Shown here: positions 6,861 to 34,702 of the stretch, one piece after another
How positions within the stretch are numbered: the first letter of the stretch is position 1
Layout of the letters: the number at the start of each line of letters is the position of its first letter
Assembly: GCA_032718475.1 (NCBI GenBank)
Contig: JAUCBJ010006467.1
Location: 1-34,702 of the forward strand
DNA: 34,702 bases
Reading direction: 5' to 3'
DNA from: Nemertoderma westbladi
Lineage: Eukaryota > Animalia > Xenacoelomorpha
The notes under the pieces: model-generated
The model's database searches: none
What the model saw: the letters and a program-made list of their open reading frames with translations, nothing else
Told to the model about the DNA's origin: nothing
Made by a program: the position numbers and the translations under genes

Positions 6861-7807
6861 ATAAGTGTTGTTTCCTTGCACAAAAATGAATTCTTCTTCA
6901 TAAATCATGTGCACAATTTTCAAACATATTCAAACAATCCATAGTGTGGAACCGGTAGTCATACAGCAATTTAGTGTGGGGACATTTTTTTTTTAGGGTG
7001 GGGGGGGGGGGGGGGGGTTGGTGGAAGGGTCGGTGGTAACCCTTAACCATAACTGTAACTGGGGTTGGGGGTGGAACGGTCGGGGGTAACCCTATCCTAT
7101 AGCTGTGGTAAGGGGGGGGGGGGGGGGGGGGGGGTAGCCTTTCCCTTAATGTTTTAAATTAATTTTTCAAACCCACATAGTTGGTTTATTTATAATCATA
7201 ATCGTCATTTATAAAGATACATTTTTGTTACAAAATCATTATACCAACACAACAGTTACAACATAACACGGCCCAGTGAAATGAACTTAGCACATAGGCC
7301 TAGCACAATAAATACGAATCATGGCTCACTCACGAAATTGGGGCGGGATTTGGGTTGTTATAATATAGCGTGGGTAAATGTACAGTACATATTATTCAGT
7401 GCACAAAGGCAGAGCTTGAAAACCAAAAAAATATTTTTTACCAGCGATGATTTAGGTCTTCATAAATCCGGCCGCATGGTATACCACCCACCAGTGCGGA
7501 TATATCAGAGTACGATGTTGAACTATGAAGTAAATTGAGATTAATTTGCATTTATTACAATTAATTATAACAATAAGATTCAAAGAGAGCGCCTACGTGC
7601 GTGAGGGAGGGGGGGGGGGGGGGGGGGTGCCGGTAATTCTAATCCATTTGAAAAGTAAATGTAAAACGAAACCAAATAAAATAAATGAAAATAACGAAAT
7701 GAAAAACGCAATAATAAGTGTTAGGATTGGTTAAATTTTAGTTTCGTTTCGTTATATAAATTTTTATATAAATAAATTCGATTTAAAATAAAAAATAAAT
7801 ATATAAA

Positions 7808-8471
7808 TGTAAGCGGATTCAATTCCACTTCATTACCCACCAGAAAATGGGATGGTGGCATTTTAGCAATATGTTGGAGATACGATATTAGCAATATTAA
7901 TCTCGTCTCATAACCAACATTTGGGGGGGGGGGGGGCGTCACAAGCCCCAAAGCCACATAGAAAGGAAGGTTAGAGGTCAAACCACCTCGGAGGGAACAC
8001 AGCTAGTAGAGGCTAGCAGCAGAGGGGAAACACTCCCAGAGAGTGCCAGGGTGAGAAGTAGCCTATTAGCCAATAGGGGGGAGGGAAGCACGTGATAGGA
8101 AACAGGAGAGCATCCATTAGGTAGCAGGCCAAGGTAGAGTAGGAGGTGAAGCAATATTAGTGTATCAGTCATATATTATGTCAGATTCTTGGATTGGTAC
8201 ATCAGTTAGTTAGTTACTCAGTTTTAGTGCAGACAGATAACAATTATTCACTGTCATCGTCATCGGCTGTCATCATATACTATTACCGGTATCAATCATA
8301 TACTATTATCTCTGTCATATATTATTGCTATCATATATTATAACATCAAGAAACAACATCAAACTCTGATCGCTTTTCTCCAACGGCCTCGGCGGAGCTA
8401 TTAGTACCATCTCAGAGCCAACGGTGACGCTTATAACAATTTACCCAGTCGGGATCTCTGATCCCGTCACA
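7808..8471 (+). repeat. 5' LTR of element A
   Basis: TGTAAGCGG...CCCGTCACA. About 97% identical by eye to 28996-29648 (roughly 18 substitutions, one ~8-bp indel, G-run length difference). Confidence 0.95.
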
Positions 8472-8482
8472 GTGAATAATTG
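8472..8482 (+). promoter_or_regulatory. Non-canonical primer-binding site of A (GTGAATAATTG)
   Basis: Directly follows the LTR, lacks TGG, and is the exact reverse complement of LTR positions 8241-8251 (CAATTATTCAC). Confidence 0.7.
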
Positions 8483-8530: not shown

Positions 8531-9297
8531 ATGGCAGAAGAAGGAAAGCCCCGATTATCAGAGGGAGAGAGAACGCCGCCGCAGACCCCGGACGATACCA
8601 ACCAAACAATCCATGAGGCCGCGACGCAACGGTATCGGCCTGCGACGCCGGATTCGCCGACAAGGGACGATCTGGTAGCCCAAGCGGAGGGCGGCCGTCA
8701 ACCACGAGGGAGGGACGAGTCGACGTACGATGGCGGTCAGAGTACCGAAGTCGCCGGACAGCCACAGGCCGAGGGCGACGGACGGCCCACCAGAACGGCA
8801 ACGGTGGGGCCGCCGGTACGATGCCAACCAGGAGAGGTGGAGGAGTCGGGAGACGGACGAGTCGAGGATGTCGGGACGAGTGATCGGCTACGACGGGCCT
8901 ACAACGCCACGAAGAAACTACTGAAGGAGGCCAGAGAGGGAGGAAAGGTAGACCAGCCTAAGTTACACCAAAGGCTAGGTGGGTCGAATAAACATTTTCG
9001 ACATTTAGTCCGTTTTGGACAGGGATAGCTGGCGAGTGAGAGACCGAGGGGGCTCGCCACCGAACTGTTTGAACTGTGGCGATCCGGGGTTATGGAGCCT
9101 GAAGTAGTGTACATAGGGCCATACTTAGTGGAAGCTAGGGGGATTAAGTTAGTGGGTTGGGCGGATCCGCACGAGGGTGAACCCGAGGTTAACCCCGAGG
9201 ATTCGGTCTCATCGGTTGGTGAGAACCCCAGAAAGCGGGGGAAAGTTAGTAGGACAGAGAGGCGACGGGAGACCGTCGCGACCGATAAGTCCGCTAC
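8531..9297 (+). pseudogene. gag: Element A gag N-terminus (in-frame stop at 9026-9028; interrupted by B)
   Basis: MAEEGK..TPPQTPD..EAATQRYRPATPD..VVYIGPY..KLVGW..EVNPEDSVSSVGE matches B's gag N-terminus at 22081-21300 (-). Confidence 0.85.
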
Positions 9298-9859
9298 TGT
9301 GACGGGATCCAGCGAGGATCCCGGTTTATCCGGTTTTTAATCTATGCGTCCCCGCCGTGTGTGAAAGGTGAAAGAGTTTGCTGATCGTTGTATGTAGTCC
9401 TTCGGGTATAATAGCATAAATGAATAAATGAATAAATGGAATTGTCAATAGAATATTAATGGTAAGCGGAAGGCGGGTATCGAAGACGGTGATTAAAGTC
9501 CCGGTACTTCCCTAGCTAAACTAACCTAACTAAACTGAATAAATGATACAATGAATAAATGATAGCTGCACTGATAATGTATATTGCACGGTTGGCCAAG
9601 TTACGTTACCCAGCCAGTGCCTTCCCCCCATTGGCTAATAACTCTGTTGTCACCCTTTGCCCCCCTCTGAAGTGCTTCCCTTCGCCCTTGCTATTCTCTC
9701 TCTTTCAGGGGTGTAACCGCTGACCCTTATTGTGCGTATGTGTCTCCTTCCCACTTGGTTGGGGTGACACGAGGTTGATATTGGTAATCAACCTCGTGCT
9801 CCCAATATTGCTTAACGGCTCGCTTTATGGGGTGGTTAGCGGAATTGGATAAGCTAACA
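9298..9859 (-). repeat. 3' LTR of element B
   Basis: TGT...ACA termini. About 10 substitutions relative to 22170-22731 by eye (~98%). Adjacent to the PPT. Confidence 0.95.
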
Positions 9860-9868
9860 CTCCCCCCC
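9860..9868 (-). promoter_or_regulatory. Polypurine tract of B (GGGGGGGAG)
   Basis: Purine run abutting the 3' LTR on the minus strand, equivalent to GGGAGGGAG in A. Confidence 0.85.
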
Positions 9869-10704
9869 ATGCTATCTTCCCGGTAAGAAGATAGCATCCA
9901 CCTCTAGTGCGCTACAATTCCGCTGGATCCCGACCTAGTGTCGGGTGTGGGGTGGGATTATTTTTCTTTCGGAGCCGGCTTTCCAGGCCGCTCCCTATGG
10001 GTATGATAATGCTACCCGTTTGCGTGGCGTCCCGTGTCGGGCTGATCGTGCGCTCCTCTCACACGACTTTTGTTTCCCCAGCACTTTCGCCACTCTAACT
10101 CTACTCTACTCTCACCCCAACTCTTACACTCTCGGACCTCTACGTCCCTTAATCTGCCTCTTACTTCTCCCCCCCCCCCCCCCCACACTTGAATTGCACT
10201 CGCACTCTCTCTATACCCCGCACTCTCTTTGCACTACAACTCAACCTCTATCCTGATCACTCACTCCCGACGAGTTTCACCCTTCCCTTTTGTGCCGTCG
10301 CACTCAAGAAGCGTGATGTCGTCCAATGTCTCGTCTGTGGTAGTATCATAGTCCATTGGTCCCCAGTCCCAGTAGCTAATTGAGAAAGGTTATACGACTA
10401 TAGTACTTACTTCGAATATATTTTTATCACTAGATTACTGATTATTACGTATGTACATACAAATTGCACTTATTCGATTATTTACATTATTTGAAATTGT
10501 ATTTAAGAGTTCGCACGTCTTAGTCTTAGTCTTAGTTCGTTCCACCAGCCTTTGGGAACCATCTTAAGTCTTTCCCTTTGCCGTCCTCTTCCCTGGGTCG
10601 TTTCCTGGTTATTACCGCTCCTCTGGGATCTGTTTTCTGTTTTCGGACTCTCGCTGCCACCTCCTTACTGATCCCGGTCGTTGGCTCCTTGGGTGCCGGT
10701 GTTA

Positions 10705-13078
10705 TCAGCTCCGATATCGCTTTGCGGGTGGCCCCTCCGAGTGGCCCTGTTGTCTCCCCCTGGTGGCGTCCCATAAGATCATCTTCATTGCTCGCGGCAC
10801 ATGCTCCGCCAAGAAATCCCTAAACTCTCCTCTGCTCTGTGGCGTCCACCTATCCAAATACCTCTGCGTATTTATCACCCCGGCATATGATGCCGCCGTC
10901 GCCACTTCCTGGTAGGTAAACGGAAGCCTCCGTTTGATAATCTCCATATGAGCCTCCTGATTGATGTTAAAGAAGCCCCACCGGAACTCCTGGGCCTTCA
11001 TACGTTGCTGAGTCATTGCCCCGACATCGGCCCACTCCTCGAAGACCCTAAACTTCTCTTCGTCGTCCATCCAGTCGCACTGGCGTCCGTAATGTCCCCG
11101 AAAGTTACATTTCGAACATCGGTTATGCAACCTTGGACACGCCCCCATCCTGTGGCTCAACTCGCGGCAATAGAGACAAAAGGTCCCTTTCTGGAACCGG
11201 TGCAAACAGCTTCTTTCCTGGTGGGTCTGTCTCCCACAGTAATCGCAACCGAGTACCAATGTCTCCCGCCCCACCTCGTCCCTCGTCCCAAGCGATCTCC
11301 GCGGTCTGTGGAGTCGCTGGTAAGCGAACTTCCAGACGTTAGTGTCCCTGTCTACGTCGATTTCCTCGCCCCTCTCGGGCATCGTCTCCCCGAATACTAC
11401 CCGTGGTGCCGTCCCCAGTTGCTCCCCAACCTGATAGTGCTCCCCGCGAAATCCATCGCCGGCTCCTCATGCACCCAGGCCCGCTTGCCAGGTCTATCCC
11501 AGAAGGCCCTCGCCCCACTGGCCGCCAACACCCTTCCGCCAACCCAGTCCGTGTCCGAGTGGCCCATCCTCCCGATGGGCGGCATCTCTCCGAACTCGTC
11601 GTCGTCTTCGTCCTCCTCTGGCAGTGGCTCCAACCCCGGTATCCCGGTGGATCAACTATGTCCCTTCCCGCCTTGGCTTTCGCCCGTAGCTCTCCATCCC
11701 TCTAGCTCCCCTAATTTCCTTAGCGGTTGGTCGCCCTCGTCGCCCGCTGGTATGGGCATCGCTTGCAACCCCGACGTCGACTGTTTCGGTGACCCCACCG
11801 TCCATCCCAGTTCTCGCCCTAGAGACTCCCCCGAACTCCCTGATGAAGTCCAACGAAGTTCGTCTAAGCCCGCCTGTTCCTCGAAGCCGTAGCTCTGCGT
11901 CCTGGCCTCCTCCTCCCTCTCCTCTGCTTCTCTCCTCTCCCGTCTAGCGACTTCTTCCAGTCGCTTTGCCTCCCGTCTATCCGTCTCTAGCTCCTCCCAT
12001 CTCTGATACGGCGTATCTATCTCCCCGTCTACCAGATGTCGGCTGTTGTAGTACACCGAATCGCCCTTCAGCCCCGGGTGGTCTACCAGACCATCGAAAG
12101 CCGTCTTAAAGGCTCTTCTGTAGCTTAGGGGTGATCCCGATAACAGAAATGCCGCTGGTTCCCTCTCGAAAACCACGGTTATGAATAAGTTAAGAAAACT
12201 TATCATTATCCAATCTTCCTGCAGGATATATCGCTTCTGATATACCTTTATCGCTCCTCTTCGGAATTGATACACCTCTTGCTTTCCCGGCCTCGCTCCC
12301 CACTTCAGCGAGTTCGCTAGTTCTGCTCCGTATTCTTCCCTGAACTTCCCCCAGTCCATCGGTTTGTGACATACGAGGCCCAATAGCTGGCCCATTGCCA
12401 CCGCTCCGCATTGGCCTGTGTTCTCGACTAGTCCCAACCCGTCTGGTGCTGTCATAGCCATGAAGACCTTCTGCATATCCAGGAGGTTGGTGGCGTCTGG
12501 ACTGATGATTCTCTCCGCGTCGTCGCGAATCGCCGATCCCACTTTCGTCGTCGACTTCTCCCTCACTAGGACCTGCACCGCCCTCGGCAGCCGGTCCAAC
12601 TTCGGCCCATCCTTCTTCCCATACGTTCCCAGGTCAAATAGGAAAATGTCCCCATTTGGCGCGGCCAAATGTAGGAGTGTGGTCCTGGCCGATCCTGCCG
12701 ATCCTCGTCTTCCACGGTCCCTTCGTCGTCTAGGATCATGTATCCTCCCCTGTTGACGGACTCTATGAACCTCTTCCAATCTTTCCTCAGTGACTCTCTC
12801 GCGTTCTTCGGAATCCCGAACTTCGCCTCGTCTCCTTTCACCACGTAGTGGAAATGCTCGAAGATCGCGTTGTCCAGCGACGGCGTCCCGTAGGTCTCGA
12901 CCAGTCGCTGTTCATGCATCTCCCTGAAGTGGTCTTGTAGCGCTCGTGCTGCGTGACCCTTTTCTAACCGGTCATAGTATCCCCTCGTCCTCTCTTCCGG
13001 ATGCCTCTTGGTGAAATCCACCAGTATCTCCTTTCCTCCTTGCTCCGCCTTTCTCTTTCGCACAAGTTTGCTTGCCAT
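10705..13078 (-). pseudogene. Accessory ORF of B: DEDDy-like (RNase D/WRN/EXD/Mut-7 type) 3'-5' exonuclease + acidic linker + three CCHC zinc knuckles; 2 frameshifts and 1 stop
   Basis: Joins ORFs 13102-12566, 12779-11652, 11633-11397 and 11382-10705. Motifs: ILDDEG (ExoI DxE, ~12730), LLHLAAP..IFLFDL..LPRAVQVLV..KVGSAIRDDAERI (ExoII)..LLDMQ..QKRYILQED (ExoIII-like). Knuckles: CDYCGRQTHQERSC, CLYCRELSHRMGAC, CSKCNFRGHYGRQC (11247-11077). The true C-terminus may extend to 10532 via another frameshift. Confidence 0.8.
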
Positions 13079-13569: not shown

Positions 13570-14030
13570 TAGTACTACGTACTTTCTTACTAACTTCTGA
13601 CTCTCTCTAACTAACTAACAGTACTACGTACCCTCTAACTCTTACTTTCTCTAACTAACGGTACTATGTACCCTCTAACTCTTACTAACTCTCTAACTAA
13701 TGGTACTACATACCCTCTAACTCTTACTAACTCTCTAACTAATGGTACTATGTACCCTCTAACTCTTACTAACTCTCTAACTAATGGTACTACGTACCCT
13801 CTAACTCTTACTCTCTCTAACTAACGGTACTACGTACCCTCTAACTCTTACTAACTCTCTAACTAACGGTACTACGTACCCTCTAACTCTTACTCTCTCT
13901 AACTAACGGTACTACATACCCTGTAACTCTTACTAACTCTCTAACTAACGGTACTACGTACCCTCTAACTCTTACTCTCTCTAACTAACTAGCGGTACTA
14001 CGTACCCTCTTACTCTTACTATCTAACTTC
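13570..14030. repeat. Minisatellite (~39-42-bp unit) between integrase and accessory ORF of B
   Basis: About 10-11 copies of CTAACGGTACTACGTACCCTCTAACTCTTACT(AA)CTCTCTAA. Confidence 0.9.
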
Positions 14031-14176
14031 TATCTGCCTACTTACTGCGTATCTAGTTATGTACTTTTATTTATATATTTTTTATTTCATTTTTTTGTGT
14101 GGGAAGGGCGTCTCGCCCTCAATCCCACCCCCCTCAGTCCAAAACTTGGACGACTAAACTCCTCTCACACTCTACA

Positions 14177-16210
14177 CTAAGGTGCTCCCTCTAGAAGACA
14201 ACACTTTCCTACAGCCCGTCTGTAGGTTTTCCTGTCTTTCGCACCTATCTTTCCACCTATCCGCACTTCTACCGATCGGACTCTTCCGTCCTCGTCGGAG
14301 TAAGTGCCTACAACTCTCGCCAACCGCCACTGGTTGTTGATGATAGTGTCATCCGTGACGATCACGAGATCACCCACTTTCAGCTCTCTGTTCGTCTTCC
14401 TCCACTTACTTTTCCTGTGAAGCGTGGGTAGGTATACCTCAACCCATCTTCTCCAATATTTTGCGCTTATCGCCTTAGCGACTTTCCAACTCTGGCGTGA
14501 GTGTATGTCATCTGGGTCTACACCCCGCATGTCGATGGTCGCTGGTCTCTCCATTAGGAAATGGCTCGGCGTCAGCACGTCTAGTGACTCAGGGTCATCA
14601 TTCACTGGATATAGCGGTCTGCTATCAATGATACCCTCACACTTCGCAAGTACTGTCCTTAACACGTCCTCCGTAACCATATGGGTGTTCATCAACTTCG
14701 TCATCAGACGCTTTGAACTGCCCACTAGTCTCTTGACGCATCCTAGGGTATGCGGTGCATACGGCGTCCTCCTCTCCCATTTTACTTGTCGTCGCCTCAT
14801 GGCTGCCCTGACTTCCTCTCCTTCCAGGATATCCAAGGCCTCTGCCATCTCGTTCTCCGCCCCCACAAAGTTGGTCCCGTTGTCGGAGTATATTACTGCG
14901 ATCGTCCTACTTTTGCGGTCTCTAAACCTCTCTAAGGCATTAATGAATGCCGATGCGGTTGCATCTTGGGCGAGTTCTATCCCCACCGCCCGCGTGTTAT
15001 TACATACAAAGATAATACCGTATCGTTTCTCCGTGTGCCGCATCACTTTGATCTTTATCGGCCCGAACATGTCCACACCGCAATGTGTAAATGGCGGGTC
15101 GTGCTGTCTTACCCTACTCGCTGGTAGTGGTGCCATCTCCTGTATGGCTCGCTCCTTCTTTGCTCGTCGGCAGGTCTGGCACTGCCCCACTACCGCCTTT
15201 ACCTTCTTCCTTAATTGTTTGACCCAAAAGGTCCTCCTTATCTCCGTGAGGGTTCGGTTGGTGCCCCCGTGCAATATCGATTTATGGGAGTCCCATGTAA
15301 TCTGGTGGACTATCGGCGATCCTGTGGGGATGATGATGGGCTTCGGTGGAACAACGATACTGTTGTTGTATCCCACCCTAGAGTTCATTACTAGGATCCC
15401 GTCGTCATTAAGTTGTGGCGACAGCGCGGTCAGCTCGCTGTCCCGTCGGAGATGCTGTTGTTTACCGACGCGTTCCACCTTATCGCCGTAGTTCTTCCTC
15501 TGCTCGTAGCGGATGACTGCTTTAGCCGCTCCTTCCAGATCTATTGTCATTCTAATCTTCACGTCTTTGCCAACTCCCCTGAGGAAATTCCAGAAAGCTC
15601 TCCAGTATGCCACTAATTTCTTGGTCTTGTACCAACTAGAACTGTAGCTAAGGAGTTTAACCGTCGGGTTATCGCACAGTTCTCCTGGTTTTGGTTGCAC
15701 GTCCCTAATCTCCCTCACCATCTGGGAGTATATATCTTCTCCCTCTGAATCTCCCTCTTCTCCTTCTAGCACTACTTCTCCTGAGCCCGGGTCCACCTTT
15801 CTCATCGGTGGCCAGGCCTCCCTATCGCTCAGAAACTGTGGCCCGTGTTGCCACAATACTTCCTTCTTCAAGAAAGTGTGGCGTACCACGCCCCTCGATA
15901 ACAAGTCCGCTGGGTTCTCGTCCGTTGGGCAGTAGTGCCACCTTTCCAATTCTGTAGTCGCCCTTATTTCGTCCACCCTATTCGCGACGAATATAGGGTA
16001 TCTCGTCCTTTCGTTATGTAGCCAACCAAGCACTACCATGGAATCCGTCCAGTAGTGTGTCTCCACTATGTTGGGAATAGTATCCACTAGGTAGGCTGTA
16101 GCCCTAACTCCTAGTCTCGCAGCTGTCAATTCTAGTTTGGGAACTGATGCTGAATCTGGCGGCGTTGACTTCGCTTTGCTAAAGGCCAGTCTGGGCTTGT
16201 GAGCCCCCTC
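14177..16210 (-). pseudogene. pol: B pol C-terminal part: RNase H remainder + integrase + DUF5641-like tail
   Basis: VPKLELTAA, YWTDSMVVLGW, FVANRV, ENPADLLSRG; HHCC zinc finger (HKSILHGG..CQTC); GVDMFGP, SDNGTNF, GCVKRLV (catalytic E replaced by K); YWRRW..YLPTL..LKVGDLVIV..WRLARV. In frame with the upstream ORF across the TGA at 16211-16213. Confidence 0.93.
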
Positions 16211-18694
16211 TCATTGTACTAAATAGAGTGCCGCTCCGTATGCCTCCAACGATGCATCGGAGAACATGTGTAAGTCCAGATTCGTCATGTTCCCATCCGG
16301 GAAATACACTCTTGGCATGCTGTATGTTCCCATCTGCTCCAGACTCTCTGTCCACTTATACCACTGCTTTCTAATCTCTTCCGGGACCTCTGCGTCCCAC
16401 TCGTCCTTTAGCTTGTACACTTTCTTGAGTATCTGTTTCCCCGTGACTAGTAGTGGGGATGCTAGGCCTAGGGGATCGTATATCCTTGCTATGTACGACA
16501 CATAGCCCCTCTTTGTGTGGATATCTGCGCCCTCCTGACTCAACTGGTACTTCAGTTCATCCGTCTCTCTGTCCCACATGATTCCCAGTGCCTTCTGTTG
16601 TGACTCTATTCTCTTGTTCGCCATGTCCTGCCCCTTGGCTGTTGTGGGATTATCCATGGTCGATCCTGGTCTCTCGTCTTTTATCGCCTCGATAAATTCC
16701 TTCGAACTGGATTGGAATTTGGTTAGGTTGAAGCCGGATCCCTTAAGGATGACGCGAACCTCACGCCCTGTGTCCAGTAGCTCCTTAACCGTATTTCCAG
16801 ACTCCATCCCGTCGTCTACGTAGAAGCCGCGTCGAATCATATCGACGGCTCTAGTGCTGTACTTATCTTCCTTTCCCTTTACTGTGTCTCTTACGGCCAT
16901 AGTCGTTGTGAACGAAGAAGACTTGGCTCCCATATTCTGTACTACCACCTTATACATTGGTATGGTCGACGGTTCCTCATCGCCGTCGTACCGTAGGAAG
17001 CGTTGGCTGTCGCTATCCTCTTCCGTCACACGGACTTGGTTGAACATGCCTTCTATGTCACAGGTGAAGGCGTGTTTTCCATTCCTAAACCTGATTAGGA
17101 CCTCTATCCCTGAGTTGTATATGTTGGGACCTTCTAGCAGATAGTCGTTTAGGCATTTCCCGGCGGTCTTTGCCGATGCGTCCACTACCATCCGCAGTTT
17201 ACCTTTCTTCGGGTCTAAAGCCACGTGGAGTGGCAGGTAATATGTCCTGTCTGTGTTTGGTTCATTGACCGGTAACTCCACGGCCCATCCCTTCTCGACG
17301 TATTTTCTGATCGTTTTGTGAATGTACTCATTCTTTTCGGGGCTCCGTTTTAACGTCTGTTTCAACTTACGAAGCCTCGTGAGTACCATCGCTTTATTAT
17401 CGGGCAGTGGTAACTTTGGTAGCTTCCATACCATTCCTATGGTATACCGCCCCTCCTCGCATCTCATAGACTCCTCCACACTCTGCTGAGCCTGTTTGTC
17501 TTCCACCGAGGTTCCGACCCCGGTTTCCTTTAGTCCCTCAAAATCTTGCCTGAGCAGTCTTTTGAGCTGTTCCTCCGCTCTCTCATCCCCTATTTCTTGC
17601 ATAGTTCCTGCGAACATGCATCCCGATGTCTCCGACATCCAAAATGGTATCTTACTCCTAATTGGGCCACTCAGCGTCCACCCGAACGGCGTCAATATCG
17701 CCACCGGATCACACTGCTTGTCTTCGCCGAAGACCGTTTGCATTCTTTCGTGGGCCGCCGGGCAGTCCATTCCTACTATGATGGATACCTTCCTGACGTC
17801 CACCTCTGGGATTGAGAAGTCGATATCGTCCAGGAATTTATATTGCTCGACCTCGATGTTGGTTGGTCGCCTGGCATTGATATTTATTGACTCTATCACT
17901 TGGATGGGGTCGATGGTCGCCCCGTAGTCGCATCGCGGTGCCACCGCTGCAATTGCGCACCATCCGGTCCTCATCTCCAGGACCTTATCTTTGCTAGAAA
18001 TTGTTGTCACCGCCATTCTACTTGGCCTCGTTCTCAATCCTATCTCTTCGGCCACCCAATTTTCAATTAGCGTGATGGCAGCTCCACTATCGACCAGCAT
18101 CAATGTGGTCACTGATCGATTGCCTTCCCCAATCACTCGCACTGGTACTACCCCAAGTAGCACCGTTCCTCTCTTCTTCGCCCCTACTGTGCTCGTTGCC
18201 ATCATTTGGCCTTTGCTTTGACCGAACTTGATCGGCGTCTCCTTGCATTGTCTAGCTCTATATCCACCCATTACACACCGCGAGCAGATCTCGTTTTTCG
18301 CCGTGTACTCTACCTGATCTTCCCTGGGTAGCGCTTGCCAGTAGCTACAGTTCATGGTTCGATGATGCGCATTTGTCTGTAGTTGGCATTTGCTCTTTGG
18401 GTCGTAGCCGTCCTTGTACAGTGCATCGCGTATCGCAGCCGCACCCGTACCAAATTCCCTACTATTCTTATTGTTTGGGTTCGGCCTACTGGGCGTACTG
18501 GGGTTATATTTATTTGTGTTGTTATCCCTCTCCTGTCCGCTCCATGATGTGGTCTTACCCCCGGCTACCTGTGGACTCGCAGTCCCCTGCATCGCTGCGT
18601 ATGGCAATGAGCTTTGGTAATGCGTTTGACGTGTTGTGCTCTGGTTTCGGTCTATGGTAGTCGGTTCTTGGTCCCTTTCCCAGGCTGTCCTCAC
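16211..18694 (-). pseudogene. pol: B gag zinc-finger region + aspartic protease + reverse transcriptase + start of RNase H
   Basis: CSRCVMGGYRARQC; LVDSGA; AILTPFGWTLSG; YYLPLH, LRMVVDAS, CLNDYLLEGP, CDIEGMFNQV, FYVDD; IYDPLG; HMFSDASLEAYGAALYL. These are Pao-type motifs. Confidence 0.95.
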
Positions 18695-21600
18695 TATAGA
18701 CTGGGTCGGTTATTAATTCGGCTTCGAAGTTTAAGAAGCTCGACATTTCTTCTAAACCCGGTTCCGCACCCTTCCTATCTCGAGTGGAGAAAGCGATCTT
18801 CCTCCATTTGTTGCGCAGCCACATCGGTAGTGCCTGCGCTATCGTGGTGATGTTGTTGGACGCGTTGAGTTCGTATGGCGCGTCTAGCGTCTTTAGCACG
18901 ATTAGCGCCTTCTCGACTTTGTTAGCGAATGTCTTTATGCTAACGGGATTATCCTGTAGGCCACCCGATGTTATGCCCCTCAGGGTTTGCCGGATGATCT
19001 TGGCCGGGTGCCCGTATTCCCTGTCCAGTGCCCACCATGCCGTCGTGAAGCCGCCCTCTATGCCCTGGTATTGCCTCACGATGTCGTATGCTGGGCCTCC
19101 TGTATATACTTGCAGATATTTTAGGCACTCCGCCTGCGTCAAGTTCTTTGTTAGTATTTCGTTACTATACATGCGCCGAAACTGCAGATATTCTTCCGGC
19201 CTACTCCCATCGAATTTAAATGGTTCTACGGGTGGTAACTCGATCCTAGTTTTTAACGCATCGATCAACGTGGCCATCCCCATCGCCTGCGCTTCCAATG
19301 GGTTCGATGGATGTTGTATAGTTTCTCCTGTTGGGTGTGGTCCGTCCGTCCTATTTCCTACCTTCCTTTGGCTAGGGTATATCATTGGGGGTAGCGGCCC
19401 CCTCCATATTTCTGTGTCGCATGATCTGTTGTCATCCAAGGGTCTCGTTGTTCTTACTCCTATCGGGGTATATTGTTGATATTGTGATGGGGGAATGTCA
19501 CCCTGTCCCCACCCCCCCCCCCCCCCCCCCACCGGTATGCTTGGTACTGGGGTTGATGTTAATATATTGGGGCCCATGCACCTATCCGCAATAATTCCCC
19601 CCTCCCCTGGGTATATGTTATGTCCCTGCATGCTGTAGTCATACTGCTGTGCTGGTACCGGTATAGGCCCACCAGCTCCTGGCCTACCCGCCGGTATGTA
19701 CTCTGCGACTTCCGGGTTTAATTCCGTTGTCCGCGCTATCCTATCGCCTACATTGTTCCTGTCAGCATGGCCTATGGTATGTGCAGTAAGGCCTACAGTA
19801 TGTCCTACAGTCTGTATGTGTCGCTCGGGATCGAAGTTTAATCTTCTCGAGTAATCCTCCCCGCGGCTACCGTATTCTCGATCGGTAGTTATATCCCGCC
19901 GGAAAGTTTCTCTTTGACCCGCTCCACTACTCTCGTTCTCGTGTCGGTACATCGCGTACCCCTCTATCGGCGCGTAGTGCGCCTCGTCAGGTCGCGCCTC
20001 TCCGGGACGACGGCAATCTCCCGAAGTTTGACCCCACCGACTTTCCGTTCTCATCTCGACTATCGACGGCTCGGTATCCGTCCTCGCTCTCCTATCGCCC
20101 GCGGCGATACTTCTTCTACTTTCTTCTCTTCTTCTCTCTCCAGTGCAGTATTCCCGCTCGTGAGATCTCTCCTCCATCTCCCGGTTAAACTCCACTGTTC
20201 TTCTTCCCTCTTCTGATCGGGCTCGACGCTTCGTCTGCCCTCTCGCGACGTCAACCTGCCTCTCTCTGCTCGATCGCACGCTGCTGGGGATACTCGCAAT
20301 CCCCCTATCACTCTCCGTCGCCGGGTGTTGCGGTTTACCTGTCTCGGCCCGCGCATTATCCATTGACGCCTGTGGGACACTCTCTGCCCCCCCTCTCTCG
20401 CCACTAATTTGTCATGGTGGGGCGCCCGTAGCCCCCCCCCCCCCCCCCCCCCACTCGCCACATTTCACTTCACTATCTCTTACTTCACCTCTACACCCCT
20501 CTCTAGTCGACGCACTGTCTCTACTGCGGCTGGGTCCGTTCACCCCCGCCTCTCTCTCCAGTATTGCGTGGCCTACCAGGCCCACCTCGGGTTGGTTCAA
20601 CCCCGCTACCTCCTGCCTACCAACTACGCGGCCTACCAGGCCCCCGTCGGGTTGACTTAACCCCGCCACTTCCTGCCTACCAACTTCGTGGCCTACCAGG
20701 CCCCCGTTTGCCGGGTTGTATATGTCCGACGCGTTCACGTTAATAGCACCACCGTGATTGTCGCCAATTTGGCCCTCTAGTTCACCTGAATTATTTTATG
20801 CACCAAAACTAGAAACAGAATTATTCTGTTCGTTCTAGATAGGATTATTTGAATTATTTTGTGTGGGTACATTATTTGAATTATTTTGCAAATTCGGGTT
20901 TGGATCATTATTTAAATTATTTGGATTAATTTGTAAATTCGAATTCGGATTGTTATTTAAATTATTTGGGTTAATTGCATTTAAGTTTAAATTACTACTA
21001 CTAGGTAAAGTATTTCCTGGAATAAAGGTTTGGTTAGGATTATCTAATACGGTACTATTAATATTAACGTCGTCTACTGTATTATTATTATTACCCCCCC
21101 CCCCCCCGCCCGTACGGTCACACCAGTCTCGGGTCTGTCGTGCGGTCCCTGTAAGTGGGGTACTAATAAATGTATCCACGGCCCTTGGCTCTTCGAGAGC
21201 ATTCGAGCCAGCGTCACTCTCTGACAACCCCATCTGCGCCAGTTTCAGTTTGTGTCTCTTTATGGCTTGGTAGTGGATAAGCCCCCTCCGACGGGCATTT
21301 AAAATGTAGCGGACTTATCGGTTACGACGGATTCCCTCCGCCTTCCCGTCCTACTGACTTTCCCCCGCCTCCCTGAACTTTCTCCGACCGACGAGACCGA
21401 ATCCTCGGGGTTAACCTCGGATTCGCCCACCTGCGGTCTCCTCCAACCCACTAATTTTACTCCCCGGGCATCGACTGAGTATGGCCCTATGTACACTACT
21501 CTAGCCCACATACCCATACACTTCCATAGATCAGACAGTTCGCTGGCAACCCCTCTCACCCTGTCCTCGGCTAGTTCTCTCTGCCCAAAGCGCATTAAGT

Positions 21601-22081: not shown

Positions 22082-22160
22082 CTTTATATCTGGCAGTTGA
22101 TCGGTGGTTCAATCACTCGGGTTTAATCACTCTGGTAGTTAACTAGGGTAGCAGCTCCGA

Positions 22161-22169
22161 TTTAATCAC
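22161..22169 (-). promoter_or_regulatory. Non-canonical primer-binding site of B (GTGATTAAA)
   Basis: Directly follows the 5' LTR on the minus strand, lacks TGG, and is complementary to LTR-internal TTTAATCAC (22369-22361 and 9497-9489, minus strand). Confidence 0.7.
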
Positions 22170-22731
22170 TGTGATGGGATCCAGGGAGGATCCCGGTTTA
22201 TCCGGTTTTTAATCTACGCGTCCCCGCCGTGTGTGAAAGGTGAAAGAGTTTGCTGATCGTTGTATGTAGTCCTTCGGGTATAATAGCATAAATGAATAAA
22301 TGAATAAATGGAATTGACAATAGAATATTAATGGTAAGCGGAAGGCGGGTATCGAAGACGGTGATTAAAGTCCCGGTACTTCCCTAGCTAAACTAACCTA
22401 ACTAAACTGAATAAATGATACACTGATTAAATGATAGCTGCACTGATAATGTATATTGTACGGTTGGCCAAGTTACGTTACCCAGCCGGTGCCTTCCCCC
22501 CATTGGCAAATAACTCTGTTGTCACCCTTTGCCCCCCTCTGAAGTGCTTCCCTTCGCCCTTGCTATTCTCTCTCTTTCAGGGGTGTAACCCCTGACCCTT
22601 ATTGTGCGTATGTGTCTCCTTCCCACTTGGTTGGGGTGACACGAGGTTGATATTGGTAATCAACCTCGTGCTCCCAATATTGCTTAACGGCTCGCTTTAT
22701 GGGGTGGTTAGCGGAATTGGATAAGCTAACA
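22170..22731 (-). repeat. 5' LTR of element B
   Basis: Direct repeat of 9298-9859. Inr-like TCAGTT at 22410-22405 (-). Confidence 0.95.
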
Positions 22732-22736
22732 GCTAC

Positions 22737-25700: not shown

Positions 25701-26890
25701 TCCACCCGGGAGAAGAAAGGTGCAGAACCGGGCCTAGAGGAAATGTCAAACTTCCTCAACTATGAAGCAGAGTTGATTACAGACCCAGTCTACAGTGGGG
25801 ATAGTTTGGGGAAGGCACCGAAGACCAAATACAACAGGCCTAAACCTGAACACAGTCCGGCAGATCCATTCCTGAGAGTGAGACAGTCGCTACCACATGC
25901 GGCCACGCAGGGGACTGCTAGTCCACAGTTAGCTGGAAGTAAGGCCACACCGTGGCAGGGACAGAAACAAAATAACAACGCGAACAAATATAACACCAAC
26001 ATACCCAGTAGGCCGAGTCCAAATAACCAAAACACTAAACCGGTAGATATGAATCTAAGCGCTATATGTGAAGGTCTATACAGGGAGCGCTACAATCCAG
26101 GATACGAATGTCAATTGCATAGGGATGGAACCCATAAGACCATGAGTTGTAAGCATTGGCAAGCATTGCCTATACAAGATCGGGTAGCCTACGCGGATAC
26201 GAACGGACTATGTCACCGATGCGTGGTAGAGGGACACAAATTCGGAGAGTGTAGAGAAACACCGACAGAATATGACGAGACTGGAGGCCAAACAATGGCT
26301 ACGAGCACGACAGGAGCAAGAAGAAAGAGGAAAGTACTACTCGGGGTAGTACCAGTGAGGATAACAGGAGAGGGCGGTCGATCAGTCACGACACTGATGC
26401 TGGTCGACAGCGGAGCAGCCTTCACGCTGGTGGAGAATTGGGTGGCCGATGAGATAGGATTACAGACGAGGCCGAGTAGGATGGCAGTAACTGCTATATC
26501 GAGTAAGGATGAGGTCCTGGAGATGACGACGGGACAGTGCGAGATATCAGCAATAGCACCGGGATGTGACTATGGGGTGACCATCAACACCATTCAGATA
26601 ATAGAATCGATCAACATAAATGCCAGGCGACCAACTAAGATCGAGGTCGAGCAATACCGATTCCTGGACGATATCGATTTCTCAATACCGAAAGTGGATG
26701 TCTCTAAGGTATCCATCATAGTCGGAATGGATTGTCCAACGGCCCACAAGAGAGTAAGGACCATATTCGGAGAGAATAAGCAGTGGGATCCAACGGCGAT
26801 TCTCACGCCGTTCGGATGGACACTTTTCGGTCCAATTAAAACCAAGATTCCATTCAGGGTGTCGGAGACATCAGGGTGCATGCTATCAGG
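22737..26890 (+). pseudogene. gag: Element A gag (continued) and protease, with several stops and frameshifts
   Basis: Glu/Arg coiled coil, Asn-rich tract, ELPPVEAFKFDGSRPEEYLQF, CQLHRDGTHKTMSC, CHRCVVEGHKFGEC, LVDSGA, AILTPFGWTLFGP. Collinearity with B ends at ETSGCM (~26885). Confidence 0.9.
23879..24127 (+). repeat. ~124-bp tandem duplication within A gag
   Basis: AGAGGGGCGTAGAA..GAAGTAGGAGGTAGT...GAATGTCCCACAAG occurs twice; B has a single copy (~20375-20505). Confidence 0.85.
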
Positions 26891-27477
26891 CACCGTTGAT
26901 GACGTAGAGGAGAAACCAGAGATGGGCGATGGGGAGGTCCCATGTGAGAAGCGGCCTGGGGAAGGATACCAGGAGTTGGGTATGGATCTGGAACCACGCA
27001 TAGTGGAGTGTGGTGAAAGGATAGAGGATAGTTCCAGAGAAATACAGTCGGTAGATAAGTTAGGAGGGGAAGTAACAGCAAGAGAGTGGGCGGAGGAGAA
27101 TGGATTCGACGCGGAAGACTTAGAGACGAATGGAACAAGGATGTTCCTGGCAAGTATCGGTATGAGGATGGAGAAGAGTGGACGGCGAGATGTCCGGAGA
27201 AGTGTCCGGAGGAGATGCCGGTCCGGTTGAGAGGCATACCAAAAAGGGGAAGGTCAAATAAGAAGACAGGGTGGAAAGGGATAGGATTGGTATTATCGAT
27301 TGTGTTCTATCTATTCTTTCGATTTCTTTTCATTCTACCGCCAGGTGATGACAAGATGAATGGTGGCATTTTGCTGCCAGGGGACCATGAAGAAATCAAG
27401 AAGGCGACCGAAAGACCCGATTTTAGGGTGGTGGAGGAGGGAGAAGCAATTCCTAGAGAGTTGGAATTAACAAGGAG

Positions 27478-28389: not shown

Positions 28390-28600
28390 TTGGGAGTGGT
28401 AGAGAACACAGGACATTGTGGAGCAGTGGGGATGGGCCAGCTCATGGGCCTTGTCTGCCACAAGCCGATGGACTGGGGCAAGTTCCGGAGGGAGCACTGA
28501 GCGGGCACAGGAAATTGTGGAGCAGTGGCGATGGGCCAGCTCATGAGGCTTGTCTGCCACAAGCCGATGGGCTGGGGTAAGTTCCGAGAGGAGTATGAGA
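28390..28600 (+). pseudogene. Two tandem fragments of the exonuclease ORF retained in A
   Basis: LGVVENTGHCGAVGMGQLMGLVCHKPMDWGKFRRE and TGNCGAVAMGQLMRLVCHKPMGWGKFREEY versus B's LGLVENTGQCGAVAMGQLLGLVCHKPMDWGKFREEY. Confidence 0.9.
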
Positions 28601-28986
28601 GGAGTACAAGGGAAGTATGGAGAGGAGGTGTTGGCGCATGAGGAAGTGAGAGGAGTGCAATTCAAGTGTGGGGAGCGAGCAGAGAGAGAGAGAGAGTAAG
28701 GGACAGAAGGGTCCGAGAGTGAGGTTAGAATGAGTTCAGAGTGAAAGTTTTTTAAAATTGTGTGAAAAGAGAGTCCACAATTGTCTCGAACAGAGACGTC
28801 AGATACATTGGTGCAACATAGCTCACGATTGCACCAAGGAGGGGTAGCAACATCATACCCAGGGGGGCAGCCTGGAAAGCCGACCCCGAGAAAAGAACTC
28901 CACCCCACACCCGATAGTAGATCGGGTTCCAGCGGAATTGAAGCGCACTTGAGGTTGATGCTATCTTCTCACCGGGAAGATAGCAT

Positions 28987-28995
28987 GGGAGGGAG
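28987..28995 (+). promoter_or_regulatory. Polypurine tract of A (GGGAGGGAG)
   Basis: Purine run abutting the TGT start of the 3' LTR. Confidence 0.85.
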
Positions 28996-29648
28996 TGTAA
29001 GTGGATTCAATTCCACTTCATTACCCACCAGAAAATGGGATGGTGGCATTTTAGCAATATGTTGGAGATACGAGATTAGCAATATTAATCTCGTATCATA
29101 ACCAACATTTGGGGGGGGGGGCGACACAAGCCCCTAAGCCACATAGAAAGGAAGGTTAGAGGTCAAACCACCTCGGAGAGAACACAGCTAGTAGAGGCTA
29201 GCAGCAGAGGGGAAACACTCCCAGAGAGTGCCAGGGTGAGAAGTAGCATATTAGCCAATAGGGGGGAGGGAAGCACGTGATAGGGAACAGGAGAGCATCC
29301 ATTAGGTAGCAGGCCAAGGTAGAGTAGGAGGTGAAGCAATATTAGTGTATCAGTCATATATTATGTCAGATTCTTAGATCAGTTAGTTAGTTACTCAGTT
29401 TTAGTGCAGACTGGTAACAATTATTCACCGTCATCGTCATCGGCTGTCATCATATACTATTACCGGTATCAATCATATACTATTATCTCTGTCATATATT
29501 ATTGCTATCATATATTATAACATTAAGAAACAACATCAAACTCTGATCGCTTTTCTCCAACGGCCTCGGCCAAGCTATTAGTACCATCTCAGAGCCAACG
29601 GTGACGCATATATCAATTTACCCGGTCGGGATCTCTGATCCCATCACA
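28996..29648 (+). repeat. 3' LTR of element A
   Basis: Direct repeat of 7808-8471, followed by TSD ATAAA. Confidence 0.95.
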
Positions 29649-30003
29649 ATAAATTTAATCATATATAAATATAATGGGAAAATTATCACCCCCATCGGGT
29701 ACTGGTACCGGTACCATTGTAATGCAATAGCTTAGTGCCCGGCTGCCCGTCCCACAATAATACTGTAAGGCACTTCTAATAAGGCAATACTGATAGTAAA
29801 TTACTACATACATGCAACGAAATTGAAATTTCTTTCGAGCTTTTCGTTTCGTTATGCCATCCCTGCTAACAAATACACAGCAGCATACAATGTAAGAGTA
29901 TTATAATATATGATATTTTATACAAAATTGTAAGAAATTACGAAATAATGTGTAGCATCGTCCAAGAAATCGCTATTACTTAAATACAAATGGCGTTACA
30001 AAG

Positions 30004-30636: not shown

Positions 30637-33600
30637 CAAACTCGTTTCGACTCTGGCGAGTTCGTCCTACCTCGTTCGGACTGTATTGGGTTCGTCAAAC
30701 CTCATTCCGACTGCGACCATAGCGGGTTCGACAAACCTTGTTCCGACTGTATCGGGTACGTCAAACATCGTTTCGACTGTAGCAGGTTATTAAAACGTCG
30801 TTCTGACCATAGCGGGTTCGTCAAACCTCGTTCTGAACGGAACCATTGCGGGTTCGTCAAACCTTGTTCCGACCGTATCGGTTCGACAAACCTCGTTCTG
30901 ACCATAGAAGGGTTCGTCAAACCTCGTTCTGACCATAGCGCGTTCGTCAAACCTCGTTGTGAACACGACCGTAGCTGGTTCGTCAAACATCATTCTGAAT
31001 GCGACCGTAGCGGGTTTGTCATACCTCGTTCTGACCACGACCATAGCAGGTTCGACAAACCTTGCTCCAACCATATCGGATACGTCAAACCTCGTTCCGA
31101 CCATAGCAGCAGGTTTGTCAAGCCTCGTTCTGAACGTGACCGTAGCGGGTTCGTCAAACGTCGCTCTGACCACGACTGTAGAAGGTTCGACAAACCTTGT
31201 TCCAACCGTATCAGGTACATCAAACCTTGTTCCGACCATAGCGGGTTATTAAAACGTCATTCCGACCATAGTGGGATTGTCAAACCTCGTTCCGACTGTA
31301 TCGGGTTCATCAAACCTTGTTCCAACCATAGTGAGTTCATCAAACCTCGTTCTGAATGCGACTGTAGCGGGTTTGTCAAACCTCGTTCTGAACGTGACCA
31401 TGCGGGTTCATCAAACCTCGTTCCGACCGTGACTGTAGCGGGTTTGTCAAACCTCGTTCTGAACGCGACCATAGTGGGTTCGTCAAACCTCGTTCAAACC
31501 ACAATGGTAGTGGGTTTGACAAACCTCATTCCGACTGTATCAGGTCCATCAAACCTCGTTCCGTTCCGACCGTAGCGGGTTCTTCAAACCTCGTTCTGAC
31601 CATAGCGGGTTCGTCAAACCTCGTTCCAACGGCGACTGTAGCAGGTTCAACAAACCTTGTTCCGACCGTATCAGGTTCGTCAAACCTCGTCCCGACTATA
31701 TCGGGTACATCAAACCTAGTTCCGACCATAGCGGGATATTAAAACGTCGTTTCAACCATAGCGGGTTCGTCAAATCTGACCGTATCGGATATTTCAAACC
31801 TCGTTCCGACCATAGCGGGTTATTAAAACATCATTCTGACCATAGCGGGTTCATCAAACCTCGTTCTGAACGCGACCGTAGCGGGTTCGTCAAACCTCAT
31901 TCTGACCGTGACCGTAGCTGGTTCAACAAACCTTGTTCCGACTGTATTGGGTACGTCAAACCTCGTTCCGACCATAGCAGGTTATTAAAACGTCGTTCCG
32001 ACCGTAGTGGGTTCGTCAAACCTCGTTCAGAACGCGACTGTAGCGGGTTCGTCAAACCTCGTTCCAACCGCGACCATAGCGGGTTCGACAAACCTCGTTC
32101 CGACTGTATCGGGTACGTCAAATCTCATTCCGACCGTAGCGGGTTATTAAAACGTCGTTCTGACCATAGCGGGTTCGTCAAACCTCGTTCCGACCACGAC
32201 TGTAGCGGGTTCAACAAACCTTGTTCCGACCGTATTGGGTTCATCAAACCTTGTCCCGACCGTATCGGGTACGTCAAACCTAGTTCCAACCATAGAGGGG
32301 TATTAAAACGTCGTTCCGACCATAGCGGGTTCGTCAAACCTCATTCTGACCGTATCGGATTTGTCAAACCTCGTTCCGACCATAGCAGGTTCATAAAACC
32401 TCGTTCTGAATGCGACCGTAGCGGGTTCGTCAAACCTTGTTATGACCATAGCGGGTTCGTCAAACCTTGTTCCGACCGTATCGGGTTCGTCAAACCTCGT
32501 TCCGACCGTATCGGGTTCGTCAAACCTCGTTCCGACTGCGACCATAGCGGGTTCGACAAACCTCGTTCCGACCATATTGGGTACGTCAAACCTCATTCCG
32601 ACCGTAGCGGGTTATTAAAACGTCGTTCCGACCATAGCAGGTTCATCAAACCTCTTTTCGACTGTATCGGGTTCGTCAAAACTCATTCCGACCATAGCGG
32701 GTTCGTCAAACCTCGTTCTGAACGCAACTGTACCGGGTTCGTCAAACCTTGTTCCAACCATATCGGGTTCATCAAACCTCGTTCTGACCATAGCAGGTTC
32801 ATCAAACTTCGTTCTGAATGCGACCATAGTGGGTTCGTCAAACCTTGATCTGAACGCGACCATAGCGGGTTCATCAAACCTAGTGCCGACTGCGACCGTA
32901 GCAGGTTCGTCAAACCTCTTTCTGAACGCGACCATAGTGGGTTCGTCAAACCTCGTTCCGACCACGATGGTAGCAGGTTCAACAAACCTTGTTCCGACTG
33001 TATCAGGTTCATCAAACCTCGTTCCGATCCGACCATAGTGGGTTCTTCAAACCTCGTTCTGACCATAGCCGGTTAATTAAACCTCGTTCCGACCGCGACC
33101 GTAGCTGGTTCGACCATATCGGGTTCGTCAAACGTCGTCCTGACCGTATCAGGTACATCAGACCTAGTTTGACTGTAGCGGGTTATTAAAACGTCATTCC
33201 AACCATAGCGGGTTCATCAAACCTCATTCCAACCATATCGGGTTCATCAAACCTCGTTCCGACCATGGCGGGTTCATCAAACCTCGTTCTGAACGCGACC
33301 ATAGCGGGTTCGTCAAACCTTGTTATGACCATAGTGGGTTCGTCAAACCTCGTTCCGACTGTATCGGGTTCGTCAAACCTCGTTCCGACCATAGCGGGTT
33401 CTTAAAACGTTGTTCTGGCCGTATCGGGTTCGTCCAACCTCATTCCAACTGTACAGTCGTAGCAGGTTTGTCAAACCTCGCTCCGGCTGTAGCGGGTTCA
33501 TCAAACCTCGTTCCAACCATACCGGATTTGTCAAACCTTGTTCTGACCGTAGCGGGTTTGTCAAACCTTGTTCCGACCATATCGGATTCGTCAAACCTCG

Positions 33601-33737
33601 TTCCGACTGTAGTGGGTTCGTAAAACGTCGTTCCAACCATAGCGGGTTCGTCCAACACCAACCTCATTCCGACCATAGCAGGTTTGTCCAACCTCATTCC
33701 GATGGTAGCGGCAGCGGGTTCGACAAACCTCGTTCCA
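30637..33737. repeat. Minisatellite array, 30-bp unit with 36-bp variants (~95-100 units)
   Basis: Consensus GGGTTCGTCAAACCTCGTTCCGACCATAGC with 6-bp insertion variants (e.g. TGAACGCGACC). No unique spacers. Confidence 0.95.
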
Positions 33738-34242
33738 GCGTATTTATTGTGATTTTAAATTAGACCAAACAGAAATGACCATAACTCCGGAACCGTTATT
33801 GCAACATCACTGGGACCTTCACTAACGGGCTGAGATCGCTCCAGAAAACATTTTAATCTTTTATTCGCCGCACCAAGACCAAAGTGAATGGATCTCGAGA
33901 TATGGAGTCTTGAAAATCGACCAATCACAGCACAGAACTCTTTAACTGGTGGTTCGACCGCGATAGCGTCGTCGGCAGCATGATGGGGATGGACCTATAA
34001 ATATTTTAAGCTTTTATTCGACGCTCCAAAGTTAATAGATCTCGAGATATAGGGTTTTAAAATTTCGACCAATCACTGGCTACGTACCAATCGTACAGAT
34101 CGTACCGAGATGAACAAAAAAAATGCCGTTGCTATGAGAAAAACCAAATACTTTTCGAGAAAAATCGATTAGAAAACTTTAAATCTAATTACTAATTAAA
34201 TAATTTACATATTTTTCCACAAAAACTCCTAGCTATTAAATG

Positions 34243-34306
34243 AATACTCCATATCTCAAGAACCTGTGGCCTTGTGGTTGTAGTATCGGCTTCCACTTCG
34301 AGGTCC
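34243..34306 (+). repeat. Truncated copy of the tRNA-like SINE head, running into (ACTTCC)n
   Basis: AATACTCCATATCTCAAGAACCTGTGGCC.TGTGGTTGTAGT.TCGGCTTCCAC.TCGAGGTCC is duplicated ~234 bp downstream. Confidence 0.75.
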
Positions 34307-34424
34307 ACTTCCACTTCCACTTCCACCCCCAAGATCCCTTCCTATAATAAATGTATAATAACAAACACCTCGAAAAATACAGCTTGCCAACACATTGTTA
34401 CTATCAATAATAAAAAATCAGGGG

Positions 34425-34460
<36 letters not shown>

Positions 34461-34493
34461 AGCTGGCTTTGAAATTAATACTCCATATCTCAA

Positions 34494-34553
34494 GAACCTG
34501 TGGCCTAGTGGTTGTAGTCTCGGCTTCCACCTCGAGGTCCCAGGTTAGAATCC
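34494..34553 (+). mobile_element. tRNA-derived Pol III promoter (SINE-like head)
   Basis: A box TGGCCTAGTGG (34501-34511), B box GGTTAGAATCC (34543-34553, one mismatch to GGTTCGAATCC), and an anticodon-arm-like segment CTCGG-CTTCCAC-CTCGAG between them. Confidence 0.7.
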
Positions 34554-34603
34554 GACACCACGCTGATGAGACCCAGTAAGGTCGAAACGCGTACGTGGTT
34601 TGG
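34552..34603 (+). ncRNA. Type I hammerhead ribozyme (minimal palindromic stem III)
   Basis: Stem I ACCACG/CGTGGT (extended by CCGA/TTGG), core CTGATGA (34563-34569), stem II GACC-cagtaa-GGTC, GAAA, palindromic ACGCGT, cleavage triplet GTA (cut after 34593). Confidence 0.9.
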
Positions 34604-34702
34604 AGAGATATGAGATATTAATTTCAAGAAAAAATTACGCGATTCCTAAATTTGTACACTACCTAGTTAAAAAGTACGCATATGATGGGATTAGTCCTAC
34701 AA

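Follow-up and report, generated by a model that had tools for sequence, protein, structure and literature searches.

The closest described systems are retrotransposons primed by their own RNA. In Tf1 the primer consists of the first 11 bases, cut between bases 11 and 12 and released by RNase H (PMC7175516); Tj1 and Tf2 are described in PMC4600332 and PMC5341516, and PMC6317226 lists self-priming for the Tf1/sushi, Tcn1 and TAR lineages. For the Belpaoviridae, the ICTV profile describes a PBS of 18 nt for a host tRNA and calls replication poorly understood (PMC8742986). No report of BEL/Pao self-priming was found in the literature searched, which lay mostly outside subscription papers, Repbase and GyDB; term look-up in the available parts of PMC3118150, PMC554778 and PMC6238403 returned no mention of tRNA, and those of PMC3601003, PMC9094657 and PMC5408684 contained nothing on BEL/Pao priming.

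The window, a stretch of 34,702 nt from Nemertoderma westbladi (contig JAUCBJ010006467.1, assembly GCA_032718475.1), holds two BEL/Pao (Belpaoviridae) elements, A and B, the latter nested inside the former:

7808-29648, forward strand: element A, whole, BEL/Pao, with the 5-bp target duplication ATAAA at 7803-7807 and 29649-29653
7808-8471, forward strand: A 5' LTR, 664 nt, TG...CA
25887-27038, forward strand: remnant of the gag end and protease of A
28987-28995, forward strand: A polypurine tract
28996-29648, forward strand: A 3' LTR, 653 nt, with an anti-PBS copy at 29418-29428, then CGT
22731-9298, reverse strand: element B, whole, nested inside A, with the 5-bp target duplication GTAGC at 9293-9297 and 22732-22736
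22170-22731, reverse strand: B 5' LTR
14177-20411, reverse strand: B gag-pol, with DUF1759, protease, RT (YVDD), Peptidase_A17/RNase H, integrase and DUF5641
11652-12911, reverse strand: B accessory ORF downstream of the integrase, 3'-5' exonuclease-like (PF01612-like) by language-model features (score 0.93, 179/256 features)
9860-9868, reverse strand: B polypurine tract
9298-9859, reverse strand: B 3' LTR, 562 nt, with an anti-PBS copy at 9497-9489

B has the domains of BEL/Pao in the order gag-PR-RT-RH-IN, with the Pao-specific PF05380, PF03564 and PF18701, and both elements have TG...CA LTR ends, a polypurine tract and a target duplication. A has kept gag and protease and is missing RT, RNase H and nearly all of the integrase, and its 5' and 3' LTRs differ by 19 mismatches and 11 gap columns; in B, whose 562-nt LTRs differ by 10 mismatches, gag-pol is interrupted by shifts of frame, and a single in-frame stop falls in the RNase H region. 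A and B are close sister families, sharing 75% of nucleotides across 2.9 kb of gag-protease, and an alignment of their LTRs has 383 identities, 142 mismatches and 176 gaps. The accessory ORF of B, for which no Pfam match and no convincing PDB match was found, is likely, from its language-model features, a PF01612-like 3'-5' exonuclease, which we take as a lead only; decayed remnants of it are present in A at 28390-28614. A second ORF of B (10705-11466, reverse strand) carries several CCHC-like motifs with a weak zinc-knuckle match (E = 0.22), tandem repeats of 40-42 nt lie between the integrase and the accessory ORFs (13611-14064), and a perfect hairpin stands immediately 5' of the polypurine tract in both elements (9860-9900, reverse strand; 28955-28995, forward strand). 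Elsewhere in the window, an array of ~30-nt units with long open frames (30640-33750) has no convincing family match, and two 78-nt repeats lie 234 nt apart at 34229-34614, with a weak match to hammerhead HH9 that falls short of the gathering score (E = 0.013). Rfam gave four sub-threshold matches in the window, none of them relevant.

The sites on which the priming question turns lie at the LTR boundaries and inside the LTRs, numbered from the start of transcription predicted below:

8472-8482, forward strand: A PBS, 11 nt, directly after the LTR, without TGG
8241-8251, forward strand: A anti-PBS, +38 to +48, the predicted 3' end of a self-primer
22169-22161, reverse strand: B PBS, 9 nt, the first bases after the LTR
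22361-22369, reverse strand: B anti-PBS, +40 to +48, then CGT
8450-8466, forward strand: 7-bp hairpin at the U5 end of A, just 5' of the PBS
22176-22194, reverse strand: 7-bp hairpin at the U5 end of B

The original prediction, that each element lacks a TGG PBS and begins its leader with a complement of its own LTR, held at every coordinate: 8472-8482 is the exact complement of 8241-8251 and 29418-29428, 22169-22161 is that of 22369-22361 and 9497-9489, and neither leader has TGG among its first 49 nt. Immediately past the LTR, both leaders open with GT; neither has the 18-nt PBS for a tRNA 3' end that is the described habit, not a phylogenetic definition, of BEL/Pao. The pairing was also said to break at the LTR boundary in three of the four LTRs, which is so for the A 3', B 5' and B 3' LTRs; in the A 5' LTR it extends 3 nt more, and there the base after the anti-PBS is T in place of C, probably a CpG-type change after insertion. 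The best matches are contiguous, and a search for a splice junction giving a better match in A or B found none. The core helix formed with a probability of 0.44 in B and of 0.34-0.92 in A, depending on the start, and the folding z-scores of the whole region were just -1.3 and -1.9. The leader of B contains extra copies of the PBS core at leader +40 and +54 (22130-22108, reverse strand), which could compete with the true PBS.

Matches as long as these occurred at 0 of 6,229 internal positions for A (11 nt) and at 22 of 12,266 for B (9 nt), and each PBS matched the LTR of the other element over just 4-5 nt. The cores of A and B differ at positions 5 and 9 only, each compensated; the claim that PBS and anti-PBS had changed together between highly diverged LTR families is sound as to the compensation, but the families are close sisters by their gag-protease identity. 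Because two compensated core positions separate these sisters, the window by itself is suggestive without settling the matter. Chance, or an inherited relic without a present role, would suit sisters with just two compensatory changes and would also suit the 9-nt match of B, which was reached in 157 of 20,000 dinucleotide shuffles of the LTR and, under a wider scan null, in 10 of 100, and is modest alone; it agrees poorly with the match of A, reached in 7 of 20,000 such shuffles, and with the relatives and the long duplex of B considered next.

A scan with a BEL/Pao RNase H-integrase alignment provided 79 metagenome loci (from the best 80 of 543 confirmed) and 17 contigs in prokaryotic genome bins (L080-L096), the latter carrying BEL/Pao pol and being probably eukaryotic or host contamination. 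None was found in viral contigs, and a word-indexed protein search gave four distant matches; since the best-listed representatives are just 27-38% identical, no close family was available for comparison. ARAGORN detected no tRNA in the window and one in the 26 loci scanned. Sequence upstream of gag was present in 40 of the 96 loci, sorted by eye into 18 TGG-type and 22 non-TGG loci, with one of the 18 having no candidate site and leaving a TGG set of 17. GT-starting sites near the gag start were compared with upstream complements, contiguous or across a GT...YAG junction, and a locus passed when at most 5 of 100 shuffles did as well. A match to the own LTR beyond shuffles was obtained in 9 of the 22 non-TGG loci versus 0 of the 17 TGG loci (Fisher p = 0.0025). 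The match is contiguous in two of the nine (L074 and L086) and exists only across a predicted splice junction in the other seven (L039, L045, L046, L049, L085, L088 and L092), reaching 16 nt in L049 and 14 nt in L088 across junctions with canonical GTAAGT donors; merely 3-9 nt of the site lie 5' of the donor in these spliced relatives. Some predicted LTR introns are only 33-38 nt long (L002, 7152-7185; L039, 181-217; L045, 337-374).

The remaining 13 non-TGG loci failed the threshold, several with little LTR in the contig; L002, with a 10-nt match reached in 14 of 100 shuffles, was scored among them. A third leader type is found among these misses in five loci of the non-TGG clade (L019, L030, L033, L054 and L096), in which the apparent LTR end is followed by a small hairpin of TTCG...CGAA-like form and neither TGG nor a detected LTR complement is present. 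A relaxed scan of 12 non-TGG misses gave mostly chance matches of 9-15 nt, so that single spliced matches of 10-11 nt are weak; in L080 it gave an 11-nt spliced match, 5 nt after the apparent LTR end and followed by CG, which is plausible, post hoc and uncounted. When A, B, the nine passing loci and L002 were compared in a 12 × 12 matrix, each PBS matched its own LTR over 9-16 nt and the 132 cross pairs reached at most 9 nt, a diagonal that is not independent because the set was chosen by own match. No selection was made on the base that follows the site, and it is C in 10 of the 12 elements, with G next in 8 (the 3' LTR being used for A). LTR ends are fixed by target duplications for A, B, L086 (whose PBS lies 4 nt after the LTR end) and probably L088, those of most other relatives being inferred; the LTR pair of L088 (5807-6511) has an ACACA duplication and ends that look non-canonical (TA...AA). 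These comparisons support the view that the clade of non-TGG relatives carries family-specific PBS/LTR complementarity lacking in TGG elements. A match of the PBS to the own LTR, whose covariation in related families the original prediction had proposed as its check, is seen in nine of the non-TGG loci and was missed in 13.

In a tree of RT-RH-IN, from which L088 was left out for length and in which the named references (Sinbad/Sailor, Suzu, Tas, Flow and Dan) were not among the rows, all 21 non-TGG rows formed one clade with a support of 99, and the TGG rows lay outside. B is a long branch, set beside the TGG elements by FastTree and with the non-TGG clade (SH-aLRT 97) by an IQ-TREE mixture model applied to 20 of the 39 rows, and the AU test did not reject the placement with TGG elements (p = 0.35). 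Common descent of the self-priming trait in B and the non-TGG loci is the preferred reading, short of proof, but the A/B lineage may have acquired it separately.

The comparison of PBS and LTR sequences bears on the idea that the pairing is structural or regulatory (PBS masking, dimerisation or translation control) and that the primer is a host RNA, for example a tRNA half, as half-tRNA priming occurs in copia lineages according to PMC6317226. Elements primed in this way include copia, Osser and Bianca. Against a host primer, the twelve PBS sequences are distinct and each tracks its own LTR, and such pairing is absent in TGG elements. A tRNA half ending at position 39 would moreover place a C at position 37 for both primers, a position that is normally a purine in tRNAs, and we regard this explanation as improbable.

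The position of the anti-PBS within the transcript was judged from the following features:

8172-8179, forward strand: A TATA-like motif, 32 nt 5' of the predicted start, with a putative promoter role
8202-8207, forward strand: A Inr-like TCAGTT, with the predicted +1 at 8204
8231-8235, forward strand: A DPE-like AGACA of the 5' LTR, +28 to +32
22405-22410, reverse strand: B Inr-like TCAGTT; the long duplex ends at 22408, the predicted +1
22121-22169, reverse strand: B PBS and leader, in imperfect pairing with +2 to +48

TCAGTT is one of three Inr-like motifs 5' of the anti-PBS in A and of five in B, so its choice needed further support. Counted from this motif, the anti-PBS ends at +48 in both elements. 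In the 3' LTR of A the DPE copy is AGACT, one base off the consensus, with an 8-nt deletion upstream. In B, the 40 bases of leader past the core pair best with LTR positions 323-362, the 38 nt between TCAGTT and the anti-PBS, ranking in the top 3 of 519 windows and equalled in 0 of 2,000 shuffles; the whole duplex over 49 nt amounts to -37.8 kcal/mol, and no energy is gained upstream of LTR position 324, the A of the Inr. With this duplex and the contrast among the relatives, chance or a relic becomes very improbable as the origin of the pairing. For A the evidence of such a long duplex is weak, at 97 of 621 windows and 129 of 2,000 shuffles; of 10 relatives, only two pass, each with 13 of 500 shuffles, and an Inr-like motif at about 31 nt was seen in only 2 of the 10. 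A spacing of +37 to 39 from the Inr, tried as a general rule for the relatives, was not supported; TCAGTT at ~37-39 nt before the anti-PBS, as originally noticed, remains a feature of A and B.

Should transcription instead start at or next to the anti-PBS, the primer would be the first 9-11 nt of the RNA, exactly as in Tf1 and Tj1, and the core helix of A does fold well from the anti-PBS start (0.91). The 20 nt that precede the site contain no Inr-like motif in A, in B or in any of 10 relatives (two of them with less than 80 nt of context), the 49-nt duplex of B requires the upstream 39 nt, and the spliced relatives would be left with a first exon of 3-9 nt, which would make a primer at +1 implausible there; such a start seems unlikely. 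A primer internal to the transcript is favoured by the shared end at +48, the TATA and DPE spacing in A, the limit of the duplex in B and the spliced relatives.

Given a site without the TGG of tRNA priming and with a match to the own LTR, as in many distant relatives, priming by the own RNA is likely, and it is probable that A and B self-prime in the manner of Tf1, with a primer cut inside R instead of a tRNA. In the predicted mechanism, transcription would begin at the A of TCAGTT, and the 5' 48 nt would fold on the leader, with +38/+40 to +48 on the PBS and, in B, the whole 5' stretch paired. The RNA would be cut at +48, after ...AC, presumably by the RNase H of the element as in Tf1, to give a capped 48-nt primer, whose 3' end would sit at the LTR boundary, adjoining the 7-bp U5 hairpin. 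Minus-strand DNA would then copy U5 and the remaining R and jump to the 3' R, and plus-strand synthesis would copy the primer end, regenerating the PBS from the anti-PBS, so that strict co-variation would follow from its rebuilding in each cycle. The primer of Tf1 is reportedly not removed, as the title of a 2006 paper by Atwood-Moore has it. Occasional over-copying of the primer could leave the long complementary leader of B. Many relatives would have an anti-PBS only once an LTR intron has been removed by splicing, A and B being intron-free. The original proposal of a lineage that self-primes from a site inside R thus gains from the complementarity in A, B and the relatives and from the preference for an internal primer; the 13 missed loci and the unsettled clade placement of B count against its generality.

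The 48-nt end might also arise without a cut, if a separate short transcript, or the 3' R copy, ended or were trimmed at +48, maybe by the exonuclease-like ORF of B, and its 3' end served as the primer; the identical site in both LTRs and the likely presence of this enzyme would agree with this. We consider such a primer unlikely, as neither 3' LTR has a poly(A)-like hexamer shortly before +48, the spliced relatives would presumably need to retain the intron in their 3' R copy for it to be transmitted, and L046 and L088 have no space for an extra ORF after the integrase.

Taking the cut self-primer as our preferred reading, we lean slightly towards a broader picture, in which a widespread animal branch of BEL/Pao has lost tRNA priming in favour of a long capped self-primer, cut in R at a conserved AC|C(G), built by LTR-intron splicing in many families and represented by the intron-free 48-nt form in A and B, with an origin independent of Tf1 and another geometry. 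Self-priming from an internal site, if true, would mean that independence from tRNA arose anew, with a cut unlike that of Tf1; it would put these elements beyond the reach of control by tRNA fragments, and it would account for their being missed by annotation that relies on the PBS. A and B yield a precise, testable prediction, namely a 48-nt primer ending in AC.

The predicted system is worth comparing with those already described. With the Belpaoviridae/Semotivirus elements (BEL, Pao, Tas, Suzu and Sinbad), A and B share the domain set and order, TG...CA LTRs, polypurine tract and 5-bp target duplication, but not the 18-nt PBS for a host tRNA (PMC8742986). The TAR (Houba and Osr-1; copia) and Tcn1 lineages of plants are likewise cases of self-priming predicted from sequence outside yeast, although they belong to other superfamilies, and no internal or spliced primer is described for them in the available part of PMC6317226. 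There is a likeness, too, to Tf1 and Tf2 of Schizosaccharomyces pombe and Tj1 of S. japonicus, which similarly have no tRNA PBS, a complement of ~11 nt to the own LTR and a hairpin at the U5 end; complementarity of the PBS to the own LTR, the trait of Tf1/sushi, is found in A and B. Tf1/sushi elements are, however, Ty3/gypsy, whereas A and B, with Pao domains and no chromodomain match, belong to another superfamily, and whereas the Tf1 primer is the first 11 bases, that of A and B is predicted to end at +48 and that of the relatives to span a splice junction.
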